Source: Escherichia coli
GTDB taxonomy: Bacteria > Pseudomonadota > Gammaproteobacteria > Enterobacterales > Enterobacteriaceae
Strand: one strand, 5' to 3'
NCBI RefSeq assembly: GCF_003334405.1
Contig: NZ_QOWM01000011.1
DNA length: 64,000 bases
This document shows, in pieces, positions 34,297 through 42,120 of the stretch; the stretch's first letter is position 1, and each line of letters opens with the position of its first letter. Under the pieces are notes generated by a model that worked only from the letters and a program-made list of their open reading frames with translations, had not been told where the DNA came from and did not search any database. A program made the translations under genes and the position numbers.

Positions 34297-35280
34297 CTAC
34301 AGTAAATCTTCAGTCTCACGAATTTCCTGACTGACATCTCTGGTTCCGGATGACTGAACTTTACGATACAGGTCGAGAGCCTGTCGGAGATCGACAGGTC
34401 TTCCTTCTCCGTAGTGATACATAATGGCCAGGTTATACCAGGCAGTGGCGTCATTGCATTCAGCGGCTTTCGTAAACCATTCAAAGGCAGCCTGATAATC
34501 TTTCTCAACGCCTTGTCCGTGTTTATACATATAACCGATGTTGACGTAAGCGCCGACGCTCCCCTGAGCGGCAGCCTTCAGATACCAGTACATCGCTTGC
34601 TTATAGTCCTGGTCCACCCCTTCGCCAGCGTTATAATCCCATGCAATTTGAAACTGGGCGTGCCGATTACCCTGCTGTGCGCTTTTCAAATACCAGAATG
34701 CGGCGAGTGTCTTGTTTTGAGCAACGCCTTTTCCGTCTTCATAAAGATCGGCCAGATTGTTTTGCGCGTCACTATGGCCTTGTAATGCAGCTTGTTTGTA
34801 CCAGAAAAATGCCAGCGCATAGTCTTTTGCGACTCCGTTGCCATTTCTGTACATCCACCCAAGATTATTTTGCGCATAAGACATTCCGCTCTCCGCGGCT
34901 ATCTGATACCAGACAACCGCTTCTTTATAATTGGGGGCTTCTCCACGATCCAGTGTCCAGCCAAGGGCGTTGGAAGCGAAAGTATGGCCTTGTAGGGCAG
35001 CTTTTTTCAGCCAGAAGATGGCTTGCTCATTATCTTTATGACGGCTTTTATCCTCGGTATACTTTTGCCCTAAGGAATACTGTGCTTCACAATGACCTTG
35101 CTCAGCGGCCAGCTTCAGCCAGTAAAAGGCTTTTTCGTCGTCCGGAGAATCAATTGCGCTATCGCGATTATAATAAAACCCAACAATATATTGAGCCTCG
35201 CAATCGCCTTTTTCAGCACGTTCGATAATCTCATCTATTGATAAATTATCGCAGCAACTTGACGTGAAAATCATTATCAT
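34297..35280 (-). CDS. ybeQ: Sel1-like repeat (TPR-like) protein, no signal peptide
   Basis: 327-aa ORF with about eight repeats of the pattern A..W(Y)..AA.QG...AQ..LG..Y..G.GV..D. Confidence 0.85.
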   Translation of the reverse strand: MIMIFTSSCCDNLSIDEIIERAEKGDCEAQYIVGFYYNRDSAIDSPDDEKAFYWLKLAAEQGHCEAQYSLGQKYTEDKSRHKDNEQAIFWLKKAALQGHTFASNALGWTLDRGEAPNYKEAVVWYQIAAESGMSYAQNNLGWMYRNGNGVAKDYALAFFWYKQAALQGHSDAQNNLADLYEDGKGVAQNKTLAAFWYLKSAQQGNRHAQFQIAWDYNAGEGVDQDYKQAMYWYLKAAAQGSVGAYVNIGYMYKHGQGVEKDYQAAFEWFTKAAECNDATAWYNLAIMYHYGEGRPVDLRQALDLYRKVQSSGTRDVSQEIRETEDLL

Positions 35281-35437
35281 TTCCTTATGGTTGCAGATAA
35301 AACATATTATATTTTTATGTGTTCCATTTTTGCGTAAGCCTTATTTTATGCGTATTATGTCGCGTCAGAAAAGTATAAATAAACGAGCCTCGCAATGCGG
35401 CTAATATTCATTTAATGAATATTTAAGGATAAATTAT

Positions 35438-36145
35438 ATGGACATGGAGTCGCAAAAAATATTGTTTGCACTTTCCACTCCGATGGAAATACGCAATGAA
35501 TGCTGTTTACCTTCGCATTCATCACCCAAAATGTATTTAGGTACATGCTTTTTTGACCTTTCTTCCTCATGGGGAATTGATGACCGTGATGACCTGCTGC
35601 GCACAATTCACCGAATGATCGATAACGGTCATGCCGCTCGGTTGGCAGGGTTTTATCACCGCTGGTTTCGTTATTCGCCATGTGAATGGCGTGACTATCT
35701 TGCTGAACTAAATGAGCAAGGTCAGGCTTATGCGCAATTTGTCGCCAGCACCGCCGAATGCTGTGGCGAAGGGGGAATCAAAGCCTGGGATTATGTCCGG
35801 ATGGGTTTTTTAAGCCGAATGGGCGTACTTAATAACTGGTTGAGCGAAGAAGAAAGTCTATGGATCCAGTCGCGCATTCATCTACGGGCTCTACGTTATT
35901 ATAGTAACTGGCGGCAATACTTTGCCGGTTATACCTTTGGTCGGCAATATTGGCAGTCTCCCGAAGATGATCATCTGCCTTTATTACGCGAATTCTTAGC
36001 GCGTAAAGAATACGACGATTCCGGCAATGATATGTTTTATCAATTATTTGCCAGTGATGATGCGTATTACCCTACCTTGTCCTGGCAACCATTGGCTTAC
36101 TATTCTGCATGCCCGGAAACGCTTAAGGATATGAGCGACCTATGA
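35438..36145 (+). CDS. ybeR: DUF1266-family protein (paralog of ybeU)
   Basis: 235-aa ORF about 60% identical to the ybeU product by eye; stop overlaps the djlB start (ATGA). Confidence 0.85.
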
Positions 36146-37569
36146 AAAATTGCTGGAAGATCCTCGATATAGAGGAAACGACTGACGTCGATATTATCCG
36201 CCGCGCTTATCTGGCGCTGTTACCGTCCTTTCATCCAGAAACCGATCCGCAGGGTTTTAAACAACTTCGTCAGGCGTATGAGGAGGCGCTACGGATTGCG
36301 CAGTCGCCTGCTAAATCTGTTTGGCAACCAGAAGAATATGAGGTAGCAGAACATGAAATTCTGCTCGCCTTTCGTGCGTTACTTGCCTCTGATAGTGAAC
36401 GTTTTCTGCCCTCCGCCTGGCAGCGATTCATTCAGCAATTAAATTATTGCTCGATGGAGGAGATTGATGAATTACGCTGGTCGCTGTGCACAATCGCCAT
36501 GAACACTGCCCATTTATCCTTCGAGTGCGTGGTGTTATTAGCAGAAAGATTGCGGTGGTTACAGGAGGAAAATACCGGGGAAATAGACGAAGAAGAACTG
36601 GAATCCTTTTTATATGCCATTGCGAAGGGGAATGTTTTTAACTTCCAGACCATTCTGCATCTGCCCGTTGCCGTGCAAAATGACACCATCGATTTTTACC
36701 AAATGTTCGCTCGGATTTGGTCATCGCATCCACAATGGCTGACATTGTATTTAGCGCAACATCGCGCAGTGATTATCCCCGATGATGCAAAACTGCACAG
36801 AAATTTACTCCGCTGGTATAGCGCAGGTCGCCTGGATATCCCCGAACTTCTGGATTACGCCCAGTCATGGCGGGAAACTGAACCTGATAATGAAGATGCG
36901 CCTTATTATGAATACGCGCAACGCGTCTATTGTGGAGAAGGCGAAAGCCTGTTGGCAGAACTTTGTGACTACTGGCGCGAGTATCCCTCCACCCAGGCGG
37001 ATGCTTTAATGTTGCAATGGTGCCGTCAGCATCGGGTCGATTATTACCCATTACTGGTGATGATGATTGAAGCGCGTGATCTGGTTAACGATCAGGGAAA
37101 ACCGCTACTTTATGTCCCCGGCGACAGCGCCCGTACGCGTTTTCATTTATACGAAATACTCAGCGATGAAAAACTCTCTGCGCTGGGGCGTTCACTGGTC
37201 GAGATGGTTTTGCACAAAGGACGTAAGCCGCGGATCTCACTCACGCGTGATACAGAACATACCTTATGGCCATTATATCTAGTTGCCAAACAATTAGTGC
37301 AGGCCTGCCAACCTACAGAAGAATCATTAATGCCGATTGTGAGCCGCCTTGATGCAGAAAATCGTTGTCCACTGGAAGCATTAATTATTCGTCGATTATT
37401 AATTCAGGCGGCGAATTTTACCGAGAAGCAAACTGTTGAACCGGAGCCGCAACCGCAGCCAATGCCCGTTGACGATGGTGGGCCAGGCTGTCTGGGCATC
37501 ATTAAAATTATTTTCTATATTTTTATCTTTGCTGGTTTGATAGGGAAAATACTCCATCTGTTCGGGTGA
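36142..37569 (+). CDS. djlB: J-domain-like protein with a C-terminal transmembrane tail anchor (putative HscC co-chaperone)
   Basis: 475-aa ORF; N-terminal J-like helix pattern with HPE in place of HPD; C-terminal hydrophobic segment [20 protein letters not shown]. Confidence 0.85.
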
Positions 37570-37578
37570 CAGTCGACG

Positions 37579-38133
37579 TTAATGTGCGGGAAGCCCGGCA
37601 AGTAATCTTTCCGCATTTTTGTAATGTTGTTTGGCGGCCAGTTTTAACCATTTTTGAGATTCATAATGGTTAACATTAATACCTGAGCCATTTCTGTAGA
37701 TCAAACCTAAAGTATATTGAGCATGAGCATACCCTTGTTCAGCTGCTTCCTTATACCAGAGAATTGCTTTACGGGTGTCGGGTTTGACCCCCAGACCTTT
37801 GAGGTAGATCCACCCCAGTTTACTTTGCGCGCGTGGATTTTCCTGTTCCGCTGATTGCTCATACCAGTATCTCGCCTGTGTATAATCCAGTGGTTTACCG
37901 TCGCTACCATGAAGATAAAATTCTCCAAGGCGATATTGCGACGTTGAGTGACCATGAATCGCGGAAAGCTCCGTGGCTGCCGTGGTGAATGGAAGACTGC
38001 CCGGTGAGCTTAAATAATCAAAGGCATAATTCACCATGGCTTTATCACGCAACGTCGTTTTCTTGGGTTGGCTAATACAGGTAATTGCTGCAACTATAAA
38101 AATTGCGAATATATACATTAATTTTTTATTCAT
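37579..38133 (-). CDS. ybeT: Sel1-like repeat protein with an N-terminal signal peptide or anchor
   Basis: 184-aa ORF; N-terminal [19 protein letters not shown] followed by three Sel1-type repeats. Confidence 0.85.
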
Positions 38134-38234
38134 GTGTGAATGCTTCGATTTTCTTTTTATTTTGAAAGCGTCAAGTTTATACTCATCAATAATAAAAAAG
38201 TAGTCAGTTAATGCACTTAAGGGATTATTAACAA

Positions 38235-38942
38235 ATGAATAAGGAAGAACAATATCTTCTTTTTGCGCTTTCTGCGCCCATGGAAATACTTAATCAGGGT
38301 TGCAAACCCGCGCATGACTCGCCAAAAATGTATACTGGGATAAAAGAATTCGAGCTCTCATCATCCTGGGGAATAAATAATCGTGATGATTTAATTCAGA
38401 CTATTTATCAGATGACTGATGATGGTCATGCCAATGATTTAGCTGGCTTATATCTGACATGGCATCGCTCTTCCCCTGAAGAGTGGAAAGCATTAATTGC
38501 TGGTGGCTCGGAGAGAGGGTTGATTTATACCCAATTCGTTGCCCAAACCGCTATGTGCTGTGGGGAAGGGGGAATCAAAGCCTGGGATTATGTTCGAATG
38601 GGGTTTCTGTCACGGGTCGGTGTGCTCAACAAGTGGCTGACGGAAGAAGAGAGTTTATGGCTGCAATCGCGCGTCTATGTACGAGCTCACCATTACTATC
38701 ACAGCTGGATGCACTATTTTTCCGCCTATTCGTTAGGACGTCTCTACTGGCAATCTTCTCAGTGCGAAGACAACACTTCGCTACGCGAGGCGCTAACCCT
38801 GTACAAATACGATAGCGCCGGGAGTCGTATGTTCGAAGAGCTGGCAGCGGGAAGCGATCGTTTCTATGCCACGCTTCCCTGGCAGCCATTAACTGTCCAG
38901 TCTGAATGCCCGGTAACGCTTAAGGATGTGAGCGACCTATGA
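38235..38942 (+). CDS. ybeU: DUF1266-family protein (paralog of ybeR)
   Basis: 235-aa ORF; stop overlaps the djlC start (ATGA). Confidence 0.85.
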
Positions 38943-40390
38943 AAACATGTTGGCAAATCCTCGAAATTGAAAGCACGACGCAAATAGACATTATCCGCCA
39001 GGCTTATCTTGCTCGCTTACCGTTGTGTCATCCCGAAACCGATCCGCAAGGGTTTAAAGCATTACGCCAGGCCTATGAAGAGGCCCTGCGACTGGCGGTA
39101 AATCCTGTCGAGGAAGCAGATGATGAAGAAAAAGATGCTGCCGCTGAACATGAAATACTACGTGCATTCAGGACATTACTGGATTCAGAAAGTGATCGTT
39201 TTCAGCCTTCCGCCTGGCAGAAATTTATTCAGCAATTAAATACCTGGAACATGGAGGATGTCGATCAATTACGCTGGCCGCTGTGTGCAATCGCCATAGA
39301 AGCGCGATATCTTTCATTAAATTGTGCTTCTTTGCTGGCAGAGCGTTTGAACTGGCATTCATTTAATGACAGCGAAGGAATGGATGAGGAAGAAAGGGAG
39401 GCTTTTCTTGAGGCCATTCAGGCTGGTGATTGTTTCGATTTCCTTAGCCTTCTGGAATATCCCATTGCGTTGCAGAACCAGACTGTTGAGTATTACTTCG
39501 CGCTGGAACGTTGCTGCCGTTACCATCCTGACTATGTCACTGCGTTTTTGGCGATGGAAGGTCCGTGGTTAATTCCTGATGATGCAAAGTTACATCGCAA
39601 ACTGTTGCGCTGGTACAGCTCGGTGCAAACAGGTATGGCGGAACTCATTCCTGTCGCTCAACAGTGGCAAACGGAAGAACCAGAAAGCGAAGATGCCCGG
39701 TATTACTTGTGTGCACAACGTTTGTACTGCGGCGAGGGGGAAAGCCTGCTTGCCGATCTCTGCGCGTACTGGGAAAGTTACCCATCTACACAAGCTGATA
39801 ATTTGTTGTTGCAGTGGAGCAAGCGTCATTGCCCGGATTATTTCGCGTTATTAGTGATGGTTATCGAAGCGCGGAGCATGGTAGATGCGCAAGGTCAACC
39901 GCTGAAATATGTTCCTGGTGAGAGCGCCCGGACGCGGCTGTTATGGGCGGAGATTTTACATAGCGGAAAATTATCGCCGTTAGGTCAATCGTTTATTGAG
40001 TCGTTATTCTTCAAGCGCAAAGCATGGGCGTGGTGGAAATCGAGAGTCGGTAGCGAGACAGAGCAAGATTCACCGTTCCTGGATTTGTATCGGGTAGCGG
40101 AACAGGTAGTACTTGAAGCGTTTCCGAAACAAGAGATGCTGGCCCGTCTTAATACAAGGCTGGAAGGCGGAGATGCTCATCCATTAGAGGCCATTGTCAC
40201 CCGGATGCTTTTGACGAAAGTGAAACTCGAGCCGGAGGATGAAGATGTCGATGAGCCAACACCTGAAAATCATGAAGAAAAAAATGATGAGGGTGAAAAA
40301 CCACAGAGCATTACCAGCATTATCAAAATCAGTTTAACGGTGCTGGTGATAGGTTATGCTCTCGGCAAAATCGCGATGTTGTTTAGCTGA
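38939..40390 (+). CDS. djlC: J-domain-like protein with a C-terminal transmembrane tail anchor (putative HscC co-chaperone)
   Basis: 483-aa ORF paralogous to djlB; HPE motif; C-terminal hydrophobic segment [21 protein letters not shown]. Confidence 0.85.
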
Positions 40391-40410
40391 CGATGTGTTT
40401 TTTGCGCCGA

Positions 40411-40442
40411 TGCCGGATGCAGCGTTTACGCCGCATCCGGCA
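40411..40442. repeat. REP-like palindrome between convergent djlC and hscC
   Basis: tgccggatgcagcgtttacgccgcatccggca resembles the REP consensus (GCCGGATGCGGCG...). Confidence 0.45.
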
Positions 40443-40449
40443 GCCGTGT

Positions 40450-42120
40450 TTATGGGATCTCAATGGCTAAATAATCGCTCGCCCGCCGCCGAACTTCATC
40501 CACGCGGGCCATATCGTTTGACTGCAACGCCGCATCAAAATCGGTGATCACCCGGCCGATCTCTTCTCGCTCGTCACCCAGCGCCCGCGCCCACAACTCT
40601 TCCAGTTTGGCTTTAAAGGTGCGATTGATGAGCATATCGCGCGGATAAATTTTCAATGCGGATAACCGCGTCCGACTCTCTTCAATCTGCTGCGCGCTCA
40701 ATGTTACCGGGCTGTGGTTAATCACTCTGGACTTAACGCTGCCGTCTTCCAGAAGCACGTCAACTTCAAGCAACCCGTTGATATCATAACTAAAGCGAAT
40801 ATCAATCGACTGATAAGCCCCGGTTTTCTTCAACGGCACATCGAAGGATTCCACCAGAATGTTGTTTTTAACTTTGTGGTTTTCTCCCTGATAGACGTTA
40901 ACCGTAATTGAATCCTGTTCCGGGTGCATGGTTGAATAAGTTTCTACACGCGACACGGGCACAGTGGTGTTTCGTTCAATAATCGGCGAGAAAATGCCGG
41001 AAACGCCCTGGCGGTTAACTTCAACGCCCAACGAGTAAGGGCAAATATCAGTGAGGATTACCTCTTCAATATCTTCACTGCGTAAGCGGCAGGCGGCCTG
41101 GATTGCTGCGCCCAGCGCGACAATGGTGCTCGGATCGTAACTTTGATACGGTAATTTGCCAAACAGACGCACGGCGATTCGCTGCACCAGCGGCATTTGT
41201 GACGCGCCGCCAACCAGCACCAGACTGTCGATTTGACTCGGCTTCAGACGCGCATCGCGCAACGCCTGTTCAATCGGCACTCGCAAGCGATTGAGCAGCG
41301 GCAACCACAAATCTTCCAGTTCGTTCTCGTAAAATTCGCATTCCCGCGTTTCTTCCTGATACTGCCAGCGAATGTGCAATGGCGATTGATTGCTACATTT
41401 TGCCGCTTCCACACAGGCGTACAAGGCTGCCAGTTCACTCTCGTTAAGCGTGGTCCTGGCGACATCCGCGCGTTTTAAAACCTCATCGACCAGCATATGG
41501 GTAAAATCTTCGCCACCAAGAAAGTTGTCGCCAGCGGAGGCGTGAACTTCAATCACCGGCGTGGCGTACTCAAGCACCGTAACGTCAAACGTGCCGCCAC
41601 CGAGATCAAACACCAGCGAACGGGTATTTTGTTGGGTATGCAGGCCATACGCCATCGCAGCTGCTGTGGGTTCATTAATTAAGCGTACCGCATTTAACCC
41701 GGCTAACTCCGCTGCTAAACGGGTATGCTTGCGTTGTTCATCGCTGAAATAAGCCGGAACGGAGATCACCACATCTTTAATCGGACGTTGCAGAAATTCT
41801 TCGGCATCTTCTTTTAATGAGCGTAATACCAAAGAGGACAGTTCTGGCGCGTTAAATGTGTCGCTGCCTAACCGCCAGTTGGTATTACTGCCCATTGCAC
41901 GTTTAAATAACGCTGCCGTTTTATCCGGATGCGAAGTACGCCGTGATACAGCCGGTTTTCCGACTAAAATATGATTATTTTCATCCATGCTAATTATGGA
42001 TGGTGTTAAATATTCACCGAACTTATTTGGAATTAATTGCGCGGCACCGTCTTTCCAGACGGCAATTAAACTATTGGTAGTACCGAGATCGATACCAATG
42101 GCGAGTTCTGCATTATCCAT
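40450..42120 (-). CDS. hscC: Hsp70-family chaperone HscC (Hsc62)
   Basis: 556-aa ORF with Hsp70 signatures IDLGTTNS and DLGGGTFD; shorter than DnaK. Confidence 0.9.
   Translation of the reverse strand: MDNAELAIGIDLGTTNSLIAVWKDGAAQLIPNKFGEYLTPSIISMDENNHILVGKPAVSRRTSHPDKTAALFKRAMGSNTNWRLGSDTFNAPELSSLVLRSLKEDAEEFLQRPIKDVVISVPAYFSDEQRKHTRLAAELAGLNAVRLINEPTAAAMAYGLHTQQNTRSLVFDLGGGTFDVTVLEYATPVIEVHASAGDNFLGGEDFTHMLVDEVLKRADVARTTLNESELAALYACVEAAKCSNQSPLHIRWQYQEETRECEFYENELEDLWLPLLNRLRVPIEQALRDARLKPSQIDSLVLVGGASQMPLVQRIAVRLFGKLPYQSYDPSTIVALGAAIQAACRLRSEDIEEVILTDICPYSLGVEVNRQGVSGIFSPIIERNTTVPVSRVETYSTMHPEQDSITVNVYQGENHKVKNNILVESFDVPLKKTGAYQSIDIRFSYDINGLLEVDVLLEDGSVKSRVINHSPVTLSAQQIEESRTRLSALKIYPRDMLINRTFKAKLEELWARALGDEREEIGRVITDFDAALQSNDMARVDEVRRRASDYLAIEIP

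Follow-up and report, generated by a model that had tools for sequence, protein, structure and literature searches.

The Sel1-repeat protein YbeT of Escherichia coli carries what its sequence indicates to be a genuine and conserved membrane-targeting N-terminus, with a hydrophobicity of transmembrane grade, and the nearby Sel1 protein YbeQ is predicted to be of the cytosolic type. We favor a model in which the YbeT segment stays uncleaved as an inner-membrane anchor and places the Sel1 domain on the periplasmic face, a reading to which we would give slightly less than an even chance. The analysis covers a 64,000-nucleotide stretch of an E. coli contig (NZ_QOWM01000011.1; hereafter the window), which is the leuS-ybeL-ybeQ-ybeR-djlB-ybeT-ybeU-djlC-hscC region (Table 1), with djlB and ybeT convergent and only 9 nt between their stop codons.

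The difference in N-terminal targeting segment between the two proteins is real but already reflected in database annotation, as YbeT is listed as a “conserved outer membrane protein” in older K-12 annotation (PMC5797941; PMC2672614 supplement). Our finding thus restates a localization predicted for K-12 since at least 2009, and the prediction is less clear-cut than that label. The literature that we found on ybeT (b0647) consists of expression and TraDIS mentions. The broader interest lies in HscC-DjlB/DjlC. Of the three Hsp70 systems in E. coli, this is the one that is understood least; it has been placed at the inner membrane and its clients are unknown (review PMC8215388). Knowing the location of the accessory Sel1 proteins would narrow the search for these clients.

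Table 1. Features of the ybeQ–hscC region, with positions in the window.
Feature	Position	Strand	Basis and remarks
ybeT CDS	37579..38133	-	184 aa + stop; ORF list; RefSeq ybeT, “tetratricopeptide repeat protein”; Pfam Sel1 x3
ybeT basic n-region, codons 1–4 (MNKK; MKRK in distant orthologues)	38122..38133	-	2–3 Lys/Arg and 0 acidic residues in 7/7 orthologues
ybeT apolar core, codons 5–21, predicted signal-anchor or signal-peptide h-region	38071..38121	-	Hydropathy, AF2 helix, dN/dS
ybeT basic juxtamembrane linker, codons 22–31	38041..38070	-	4 Lys/Arg + 1 Asp; AF2 break at 21–26, pLDDT <50
ybeT two N-terminal capping helices (residues 28–42, 49–59), before the repeats	37957..38052	-	AF2, pLDDT 52–85
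ybeT three Sel1 repeats (residues 64–169)	37627..37944	-	Pfam PF08238; AF2 helix pairs, pLDDT >90
ybeT/ybeU divergent intergenic region, 101 bp, AT-rich (27.7% GC)	38134..38234	.	Composition
ybeQ CDS, 325 aa (RefSeq start), eight Sel1 repeats, no hydrophobic N-terminus	34297..35274	-	
ybeR (DUF1266), ybeU paralogue	35438..36145	+	59% identity over 235 aa
djlB, tail-anchored J-domain protein, djlC paralogue	36142..37569	+	50% identity to DjlC; C-terminal hydrophobic segment 449–475
ybeU (DUF1266), divergent from ybeT	38235..38942	+	ORF list, RefSeq, YbeR identity
djlC, tail-anchored HscC co-chaperone	38939..40390	+	RefSeq; DjlB identity
DjlC C-terminal tail anchor, about residues 456–483	40304..40387	+	KD19 1.99 at 464–482
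hscC (Hsp70 paralogue), convergent with djlC	40450..42120	-	ORF list, RefSeq

YbeT combines a strongly hydrophobic N-terminus with a Sel1 solenoid

An earlier note on this DNA had described a basic and hydrophobic N-terminus in YbeT, and this segment is real: the open reading frame begins exactly as quoted there, with MNKK and a 17-residue apolar core (residues 5–21), followed by a basic linker and three Sel1 repeats. The core has a mean Kyte-Doolittle (KD) hydropathy of 2.54, and the best averages over 19 and 10 residues are 2.00 and 3.32, respectively. The latter exceeds the corresponding values for cleavable signal peptides encoded in the window (GltI 2.39, RlpA 2.40, LptE 2.80) and falls within the range of the PBP2 (3.19) and RodA (3.52) membrane anchors from the same window. 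The uncharged stretch is slightly longer than the apolar one (19 residues, 5 to 23, vs. 17), and the Hessa sums of the core (+2.2) and the DjlC tail anchor (+1.4) lie close together. In the AF2 model of YbeT (mean pLDDT 83.7), residues 3–21 form a helix of low pLDDT that is detached from the domain, and a flexible break at 21–26 leads into a confidently predicted Sel1 solenoid.

The repeats themselves were identified with Pfam PF08238 at residues 64–98, 100–135 and 136–169 (i-E 1.2e-9, 1.3e-11 and 3.1e-5), and correspond in the AF2 model to three antiparallel helix pairs (63–75/84–95, 100–112/120–132 and 136–148/156–168, all with pLDDT >90). A sequence search of the PDB matched YbeT to Sel1 proteins with E-values down to 6e-69, and the same kind of search with YbeU/DUF1266 found no solved relatives. 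No specific family was assigned to the module proteins in an NCBIfam scan, and a PADLOC scan of the same proteins gave no defense match except a marginal and irrelevant one between YbeQ and PtuA (E 1.2e-4). When all representative proteins were searched with YbeT, the best 150 matches were all giant multi-repeat Sel1 proteins, from which the N-termini of close relatives could not be traced. The closest local relatives outside the orthologues were P0056 and P0057 (51–56% identity over the repeats), in which a zinc ribbon is followed by a transmembrane segment and then by Sel1, so that the Sel1 part would be outside, and P0051, which has a canonical signal peptide.

The N-terminal segment is conserved as protein

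Seven YbeT orthologues were compared, from E. coli, two cryptic Escherichia clades, E. whittamii, E. albertii, and two contigs (L010/L011) of another enterobacterial lineage. The hydrophobic segment is kept in all seven, with hydrophobic-for-hydrophobic exchanges only, and the mean KD of the 17-residue core stays between 2.5 and 2.8 throughout, so that the segment pointed out in the earlier note also holds up across orthologues. Evolutionarily, dN/dS over codons 1–32 is low (0.08–0.24, for dS of 0.9–1.3), in the same regime as the Sel1 domain, which indicates purifying selection, with the constraint on the protein rather than on the DNA.

This bears on whether the segment belongs to the functional protein at all, as translation might start at Met33 (giving a cytoplasmic protein of 152 aa), or the gene might be a decaying, unexpressed relic. 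Gene callers did choose Met33 in two cases (P0012 and P0015), and no Shine-Dalgarno sequence precedes any of the three candidate ybeT ATGs. Moreover, the gene appears silenced and SlyA-dependent, with no match in proteomic supplements (across the accessible parts of the supplements of membrane-proteome, STEPdb, thermal-profiling and envelope genetic-interaction studies, YbeT, YbeQ and DjlC were all without a match); the ybeT segment finds no match in about a fifth of complete E. coli genomes; and IS1 deletions and recombination between paralogues affect the locus. However, codons 1–32 are constrained like the Sel1 domain, an open frame from Met1 has been conserved throughout, including the cases in which the caller took Met33, and the ribosome-binding site of Met33 is no better than that of Met1. 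We regard both a start at Met33 and a relic gene as very unlikely.

A 168-aa form (P0004, “MTCISQ...”, 444 members) was considered as an anchor-less natural allele and rejected: in both places inspected its gene starts 11 nt from the end of the contig, and it looks like an assembly-edge artefact.

YbeQ is predicted to be cytosolic

The earlier note also held that YbeQ is devoid of such a segment, and we agree: its best 19-residue KD average is 1.09, and Sel1 repeats begin at residue 28. The listed YbeQ reading frame already extends to its maximum after the preceding stop codon, which excludes a hidden signal further upstream. The start should be moved from 35280, as given in that note, to the ATG at 35274, which is preceded by a strong Shine-Dalgarno sequence (dG -6.2 kcal/mol) and agrees with the 325-aa RefSeq start. 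In Salmonella and Citrobacter enshiensis, too, YbeQ orthologues have a polar N-terminus. A more distant candidate orthologue (P0249, “55% YbeQ-like”) was set aside, since its locus contains many short, broken ORFs and seems to stem from an assembly with numerous errors.

The two proteins further differ in bulk properties, the soluble part of YbeT having a pI of 9.1–9.4 and no Cys, and YbeQ a pI of 5.0 and 5 Cys. As far as can be judged from these features, YbeQ would be the larger, acidic, soluble cytoplasmic Sel1 protein of the pair.

Which side of the membrane, and cleaved or not?

In the model that we favor, YbeT would be a small (21 kDa), basic Sel1-repeat adaptor made with a conserved N-terminal signal-anchor. 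MNKK and the highly hydrophobic core would send the nascent chain to the inner membrane, most likely co-translationally, and the segment would probably be kept uncleaved as a single transmembrane helix with its N-terminus inside, such that the Sel1 solenoid (two capping helices, three repeats and a C-terminal cap) would sit on the periplasmic side, separated from the bilayer by 6–7 residues. The n-region is always +2 or +3 and never acidic, which favors the N-in orientation under the positive-inside rule (as summarized in PMC9360617).

The charges beyond the core argue against a periplasmic face. In E. coli, the 15 residues that follow the core hold 4 Lys/Arg and 1 Asp, vs. 2 Lys on the N-side (3–4 Lys/Arg in these 15 residues over the whole set), and this strongly basic flank would have to cross the membrane, which makes E. 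coli YbeT topologically “frustrated” in its charge balance. The Lys/Arg counts for the N- and C-flanks are 2 vs. 4 in E. coli, 2 vs. 3 in the L003 orthologue and 3 vs. 3 in L010/L011; the excess on the N-flank expected of an N-in/C-out protein was thus not found, and still the n-region is always basic.

These same charges make the opposite orientation a serious rival, which we nevertheless consider somewhat unlikely: the MNKK tail would lie outside, and the basic linker and the Sel1 domain in the cytoplasm. Every Escherichia orthologue has more positive charge in the C-flank than in the N-flank (4 vs. 2 Lys/Arg), and the charge of the C-flank is an outlier among the exported proteins of the window. 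A cytoplasmic domain would also share a compartment with YbeU, with the J-domain and middle region of DjlC, and with HscC, all of which lie in the cytoplasm or are turned toward it. HscC has been described as binding mostly peptides with a positive charge (review PMC8215388), and the soluble part of YbeT is basic, as noted above. In this orientation YbeT, tethered to the membrane beside DjlC, YbeU and HscC, would be the counterpart of soluble YbeQ, with both Sel1 proteins in one compartment, and a candidate adaptor or client of DjlC-HscC.

Known proteins illustrate both sides of this comparison. Four E. coli proteins with an N-out/C-in orientation and a Lys/Arg-rich C-flank, ZipA, DjlA, YhcB and YajC, resemble YbeT in having a short N-tail, one helix, a Lys/Arg-rich juxtamembrane stretch and a soluble domain, which we count for the cytoplasm-facing orientation. 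However, the N-tails of these and other known N-out anchors are neutral or acidic, whereas that of YbeT is +2 or +3, with 2–3 Lys/Arg and no acidic residue within four positions in every orthologue, and translocation of such a tail is disfavored. In addition, the 3 vs. 3 balance in L010/L011, combined with two (L010) and one (L011) acidic residues in the C-flank, favors N-in, and the Cys-free soluble part is a point, if a weak one, for an oxidizing compartment. For the N-in anchor, a counterpart in the window is the type II protein PBP2/MrdA (N-in/C-out), which like YbeT has a basic N-flank, one strongly hydrophobic helix and a soluble domain, but from which YbeT differs in its N-tail of only four residues, its shorter core (17 aa) and its much more basic C-flank.

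Even with the N-terminus inside, cleavage is possible given the length of the core, as 17 residues are fewer than a transmembrane helix usually has and more than is usual in the h-region of a signal peptide. Cleavage by signal peptidase I (SPase I) between Ser21 and Gln22 would yield an 18.5-kDa soluble periplasmic protein, comparable to Sel1 proteins that pathogens secrete, an outcome that we think rather improbable. All five Escherichia orthologues have the classical n-h-c layout and the candidate site (C-I-S|Q), in which the residues at -3 (Cys) and -1 (Ser) are small and +1 is not Pro. In L010/L011, however, it reads C-I-F|Q, and Phe at -1 breaks the -1 rule, which argues against conserved cleavage. 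The layout of a basic n-region and hydrophobic h-region is indeed present, but the h-region is longer and more hydrophobic than those of the cleaved signals in the window, and no helix breaker occurs in the c-region. The would-be mature protein would carry Lys at +3 and +4, and its net charge is +2 over the first 5 residues and +3 over the first 10, vs. -2 to +1 and -2 to 0, respectively, for the exported proteins DacA, RNase I, PagP, RlpA, LptE and GltI from the same window. The neutral or acidic early mature region expected after a cleavable Sec signal is thus absent from YbeT, and a basic one reportedly inhibits export.

Relatives of known structure bear on the same question. Exported Sel1 proteins such as EsiB/c5321 of ExPEC (4bwr), an H. 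pylori protein (1ouv), a Legionella protein (6deh) and the Sel1 repeat proteins 6ok3/6ork share with YbeT the alpha/alpha solenoid (E 1e-17 to 6e-69); the deposited name of 1ouv is “conserved hypothetical secreted protein”, and EsiB, as well as the sub-threshold NCBIfam relatives MotX, ExoR, AlgK and MerG, are what we take to be exported or envelope proteins. Those among them that are known to be exported have canonical signal peptides of the cleavable kind, and each repeat in the H. pylori family holds one disulfide. YbeT is unlike them in its transmembrane-grade core, basic early mature region, Cys-free domain and number of repeats (three), and is the orthologue of none.

A lipoprotein is the remaining reading, with processing by Lgt/LspA at Thr18|Cys19 and sorting of the acylated protein to the outer membrane (Ile at +2). 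It would explain the old “outer membrane” label, and Cys19, the only Cys of YbeT, located at the end of the hydrophobic core, is invariant in 7/7 orthologues; in a segment that is conserved as a whole, this is hardly informative. A lipobox consists of L-[A/S]-[G/A]-C at -3 to +1 (PMC9360617). Two pattern scans ([LVI][ASTVI][GAS]C and a PS51257-like pattern) over the seven orthologues found none, Cys19 being preceded by A-I-T (F-I-T in E. albertii) with the wrong residues at both -3 (Ala/Phe) and -1 (Thr). The lipoprotein signal, a check proposed in the earlier note, is therefore hardly credible. Likewise, a search of the n-regions for a Tat signal (S/T-R-R-x-F-L-K) found the RR motif in 0/7 orthologues.

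The contrast drawn earlier, of one protein in the periplasm or membrane and the other in the cytoplasm, accordingly stands for the membrane-targeting N-terminus of YbeT, the cytosolic type of YbeQ and the bulk properties, which differ as such a split would predict; the periplasmic part is not established, given the missing lipobox and Tat motifs, the poorly conserved SPase I site and the basic C-flank.

Duplication and distribution of the two modules

Sub-functionalization after duplication had also been proposed, and this part of the proposal is weak. The DUF1266 and J-protein genes are, from their sequences, clear tandem duplicates, with 59% (YbeR/YbeU) and 50% (DjlB/DjlC) identity over the full length. 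In contrast, YbeT and YbeQ are only ~36% identical, over the repeats only, and either one is 32–48% identical to unrelated Sel1 proteins, so that their paralogy would follow from gene position alone. They do share PF08238, a divergent position upstream of a DUF1266 gene and then a tail-anchored J-protein gene, and an AT-rich island of the H-NS type. YbeQ (b0644) differs in having eight repeats (vs. three in YbeT), no hydrophobic segment, an acidic composition and 5 Cys, and in being found in Salmonella and Citrobacter, where ybeT is absent.

This last difference extends to whole gene orders. Salmonella (L016), Citrobacter enshiensis (L017) and a third lineage (L019) have ybeQ-ybeR-djlB-ybeU-djlC-hscC and no ybeT, another lineage has ybeT-ybeU-djlC-hscC without ybeQ and ybeR, and Pseudomonas and Leminorella have DUF1266 and a long DjlC-like protein with no Sel1 gene nearby. 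The phyletic distributions of ybeT, ybeU and djlC, the genes of the second module, are thus not the same. The DjlB/DjlC alignment scan of genome contigs, with its narrow peptide patterns, gave only eight loci, and contexts from other genera were obtained through YbeU homologues. Overall, duplication is supported for the flanking genes and only weakly for YbeT/YbeQ, whose identity is low and whose repeat number and distribution differ.

A possible link between YbeT and DjlC-HscC

Both ybeT and ybeU-djlC are induced on SlyA overexpression and have entries in an H-NS-regulon column (PMC5797941). The shared 101-bp AT-rich control region and the common rise with SlyA suggest that ybeT is expressed together with DjlC and its Hsp70 partner HscC, and YbeT may also be functionally linked to DjlC/HscC. 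A Shine-Dalgarno sequence is absent before ybeT and good before ybeU, and a promoter and terminator scan of the ybeT region gave nothing over shuffled expectation. We also note that ybeT is a poorly expressed and frequently deleted gene.

If YbeT faces the periplasm, as we favor, its domain would be out of reach of the cytoplasmic parts of YbeU, DjlC and HscC, its only obvious genomic partners, which would imply either that YbeT is functionally unrelated to its neighbors or that there is trans-membrane coupling. One form of coupling, which we regard as a long shot, would have the YbeT helix pack on the DjlC tail anchor, such that a membrane-spanning pair couples the periplasmic Sel1 domain to the cytoplasmic J-domain/Hsp70 (HscC). 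Membrane insertion of DjlC, into the plasma membrane, is cited as shown, and the HscC ATPase is stimulated by DjlC only (review PMC8215388).

Such a pair, if true, would loosely recall, in a bacterium, adaptors of the SEL1L type. Eukaryotic SEL1L/Hrd3 (8kes, 8ket) is likewise a membrane-tethered Sel1 adaptor (repeat-level E about 1e-33), and works with a membrane complex and Hsp70-family chaperones. It differs from YbeT in its C-terminal anchor, its place in the ER lumen, its about 11 repeats and the lack of orthology, so the analogy is conceptual only.

The sole hint of a YbeT-DjlC pair is a co-variation between the type of DjlC tail and the presence of ybeT. The last 28 residues of DjlC are 50–86% identical to those of E. 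coli DjlC in lineages with ybeT and 25–29% in lineages without it, a contrast that shared ancestry may explain given only about two independent lineages per side. The rest of DjlC, YbeU and HscC diverge about equally in lineages with and without ybeT.

YbeT carries a conserved hydrophobic N-terminus that YbeQ lacks

The 8.5 kb around ybeT matches many E. coli chromosomes at 100% identity, and its RefSeq gene order is leuS, ybeL, ybeQ(-), ybeR(+), djlB(+), ybeT(-), ybeU(+), djlC(+), hscC(-), rihA. YbeT belongs to the Sel1-like repeat family, carrying both defining features tested, with three repeats at residues 64-169 (Pfam), and YbeQ has eight, the first at residue 28. The RefSeq start of ybeQ (325 aa) is backed by a Shine-Dalgarno sequence, whereas a start at 35280 is not.

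Coordinates of the features and loci compared
Feature	Sequence	Coordinates	Strand	Remark
ybeT	window	37579..38133	minus	184 aa; RefSeq annotation
ybeQ start	window	35274	minus	RefSeq
Region upstream of ybeQ	window	35275-35295		Shine-Dalgarno search
Region upstream of ybeT	window	38134-38160		Shine-Dalgarno search
DjlC tail anchor	window	40304-40387		
Instability region	window	35300-40500		compared with L014, L022, L023
djlC	L010	3324-4763		
djlC	L011	1545-2981		
djlC	L016	9842-11305		
djlC	L017	7696-9165		
djlC	L019	10705-12174		
djlC	L020	7705-9156		
DjlB/DjlC-like ORF fragments	L002	2944-4299		Escherichia sp. MOD1-EC7003
Third J-protein region	L011	5761-8081		
Third J-protein region	L010	7796-8743		
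Distant module	L018	7001-10431		Leminorella

As the earlier note described, the translated ybeT ORF opens with a basic start and an apolar core. This core covers 17 residues (5-21; mean Kyte-Doolittle hydropathy 2.54), with no charged residue at positions 5-23, and its best 10-residue value (3.32) exceeds those of the cleavable signal peptides in the window (GltI, 2.39; RlpA, 2.40; LptE, 2.80) and is comparable to those of membrane anchors (PBP2, 3.19; RodA, 3.52). A crude Hessa sum (+2.2 kcal/mol) lies near the value for the tail anchor of DjlC (+1.4), and insertion of DjlC into the plasma membrane was shown in work cited by a review (PMC8215388). No YbeQ window rises above 1.09, and the YbeQ ORF is already maximal, so that no upstream signal is hidden. 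Together, these values confirm the observed contrast between the two proteins.

Full-length YbeT orthologues occur in two cryptic Escherichia clades, E. whittamii, E. albertii and two contigs of one enterobacterial lineage (L010/L011, 71-72% identity). All keep the basic four-residue n-region (MNKK or MKRK) and the 17-residue core, where changes are only hydrophobic-for-hydrophobic, as well as an invariant I-T-C and a basic linker. Codons 1-32 have a dN/dS of 0.08-0.24, similar to the Sel1 domain, at a dS of 0.9-1.3, which corresponds to constraint on the protein rather than on overlapping regulatory DNA. In L011 the gene caller chose Met33, and from Met1 onwards the frame stays open and is conserved; that the segment is not used, as a start at Met33 would have it, is very improbable. 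Separately, an apparent anchor-less allele (P0004) was rejected: its start lies 11 nt from a contig end in both places inspected, and it thus looks like an assembly artefact.

An anchor-like segment of ambiguous orientation

Despite the invariant cysteine, a lipoprotein is the least probable of the readings weighed: Cys19 is preceded by A-I-T (in E. albertii by F-I-T), which fails the lipobox (as defined in PMC9360617) at -3 and -1, and reading YbeT as a lipoprotein or outer-membrane protein has no support. No twin arginine, as in a Tat signal, is present in the YbeT orthologues. A cleaved, soluble periplasmic protein would suit the five Escherichia orthologues, in which C-I-S/Q-P obeys the -3/-1 rule of SPase I, but the same site in L010/L011 (C-I-F/Q-S) breaks it. 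The would-be mature N-terminus is also basic (net +2 over the first five residues and +3 over the first ten), compared with -2 to +1 and -2 to 0, respectively, for DacA, RNase I, PagP, RlpA, LptE and GltI in the window. Basic residues just past a signal peptide reportedly inhibit Sec export, a finding attributed to Yamane and Mizushima in 1988, Andersson and von Heijne in 1991 and Kajava et al. in 2000. Cleavage to a soluble form is accordingly quite unlikely, and the high hydrophobicity, the non-conserved cleavage site and a c-region devoid of helix breakers point to a putative uncleaved anchor instead. Like exported bacterial Sel1 proteins (PDB matches), YbeT has an N-terminal targeting signal; unlike them, its core is anchor-like and its early mature region basic.

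For the orientation of such an anchor, the positive-inside rule (as summarised in PMC9360617) gives conflicting signals. The n-region, always +2 or +3 and never acidic in any orthologue, favours N-in, and the 15-residue C-flank favours C-in in Escherichia (4 Lys/Arg, 1 acidic; 3 and 2 in L003) and neither clearly in L010/L011 (3 Lys/Arg, 1-2 acidic). Across all orthologues N-in/C-out would be the least strained, because translocating MKRK should be harder than translocating a basic flank that precedes a long domain. An anchored YbeT facing the periplasm is thus our tentative preference; one facing the cytoplasm, as the Escherichia C-flank would have it, is less likely but a real contender, and judged from these charges the orientation appears genuinely ambiguous. 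Our literature search found no experimental localisation of YbeT. In the AlphaFold2 model (mean pLDDT 83.7) a detached helix (3-21) and a flexible break (21-26) come before two capping helices (28-42, 49-59); these lead into three confidently modelled Sel1 helix pairs, with a cap at the C-terminus. The folded domain is thus placed just 6-7 residues off the hydrophobic helix. The soluble part of YbeT is Cys-free with a pI of 9.1-9.4, against five Cys and a pI of 5.0 in YbeQ, a contrast that weakly fits different compartments.

Lineage distribution and the duplication question

YbeR/YbeU (59%) and DjlB/DjlC (50%) are clearly paralogous over their full length, and in E. coli a divergent Sel1 gene precedes each DUF1266/J-protein pair. 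YbeT and YbeQ align through the repeat motif only (32-36% in the main local alignments), and each matches unrelated bacterial and fungal Sel1 proteins at 32-48%. Salmonella (L016), C. enshiensis (L017) and a third lineage (L019) have ybeL-ybeQ-ybeR-djlB-ybeU-djlC-hscC without ybeT, djlB and ybeU being only 11-72 nt apart; the L010/L011 lineage has ybeT-ybeU-djlC-hscC without ybeQ or ybeR. This gene content places the duplication of the DUF1266/J-protein pair before the Escherichia-Salmonella split. Pseudomonas and Leminorella encode DUF1266 and a long DjlC-like protein (with HscC in Pseudomonas) and no nearby Sel1 gene, so the conserved core of the module seems to be DUF1266 together with the J-protein, and the Sel1 genes act like accessories that vary from lineage to lineage. 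YbeT may have derived from YbeQ, have been gained independently (GC 42.9%, compared with 46-48% in its neighbours) or have been lost from other lineages. The sub-functionalisation proposed earlier is a possibility rather than a result.

In the distant modules (Pseudomonas L005, L006, L007, L009; Leminorella L018) the DjlC-like protein has ~900 aa; the L007 copy, whose sequence was inspected, has a hydrophobic C-terminal region, and hscC is convergent in Pseudomonas. Extra DjlB/DjlC-like ORF fragments lie between ybeL and ybeQ in L002. In L011/L010 a third J-protein of DjlB type (447 aa, tail-anchored) adjoins ybeL; next to it comes a 319-aa protein for which no Pfam match is on record and whose signal peptide looks canonical (MKHFNLYFFFVLFFSFGAFA/KQD). 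Here, too, a membrane J-protein is paired with an apparently exported protein.

K-12 annotation lists YbeT as a "conserved outer membrane protein" and YbeQ as a "hypothetical protein" (PMC2672614 supplement; PMC5797941), so as a prediction the location contrast is not new. The earlier interpretation is partly supported. The additions made here are that the targeting segment is conserved and under selection, that its outer-membrane reading lacks support, that its orientation is equivocal, and that the case for paralogy is less strong than it first seems.

Over its last 28 residues, DjlC shares 50-86% identity with the E. coli protein in ybeT-bearing lineages ("..IIK.sL..L.iGY.lGKI.MLFS") and 25-29% in ybeT-less ones ("..MK.lKI.G.IALIV.ALNRFFHFF"). 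The rest of DjlC is at 58-64% (86% in E. albertii), and, with YbeU and HscC, is about equally divergent in both groups. This co-variation, the only observation hinting at a physical YbeT-DjlC relationship, could reflect TM-TM co-evolution or shared ancestry; with few independent lineages, it may be phylogeny.

Expression and instability of the locus

A common intergenic region (101 bp, 27.7% GC) separates ybeT from ybeU-djlC. SlyA overexpression raises ybeT 4.1-fold and ybeU-djlC 2.8-fold, and both have entries in the H-NS-regulon column of that study's table (PMC5797941). No Shine-Dalgarno sequence was found before ybeT Met1, Met6 or Met33 (anti-SD dG -0.2 to +0.4 kcal/mol); those of ybeU, ybeR, ybeL and ybeQ are good (-5.2 to -7.4 kcal/mol).

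Within E. coli the ybeR-djlC locus is unstable and highly plastic: among 5,426 complete genomes, the ybeT segment has no match in 1,134 and the ybeR-djlC block none in 1,001 (~18%). IS1 sits at the deletion junctions of ES9 (ybeR through hscC gone) and TB354 (djlB 3' end, ybeT and ybeU 5' end gone). The BL21-type Nico21(DE3) has a frameshifted djlB/djlC hybrid without ybeT or ybeU, and an internal stop in ybeQ; in some strains, such as SaT040, ybeT-ybeU-djlC is retained but most of ybeR-djlB is missing. PADLOC found no defence-system signature at the module. ybeT is among the top TraDIS hits for phage "Arnold", and the Keio knockout behaves as wild type (bioRxiv 10.1101/2025.12.01.691526). HscC binds mainly positively charged peptides, according to a review (PMC8215388), a preference beside which the basic soluble part of YbeT (pI 9.1-9.4) may be set.
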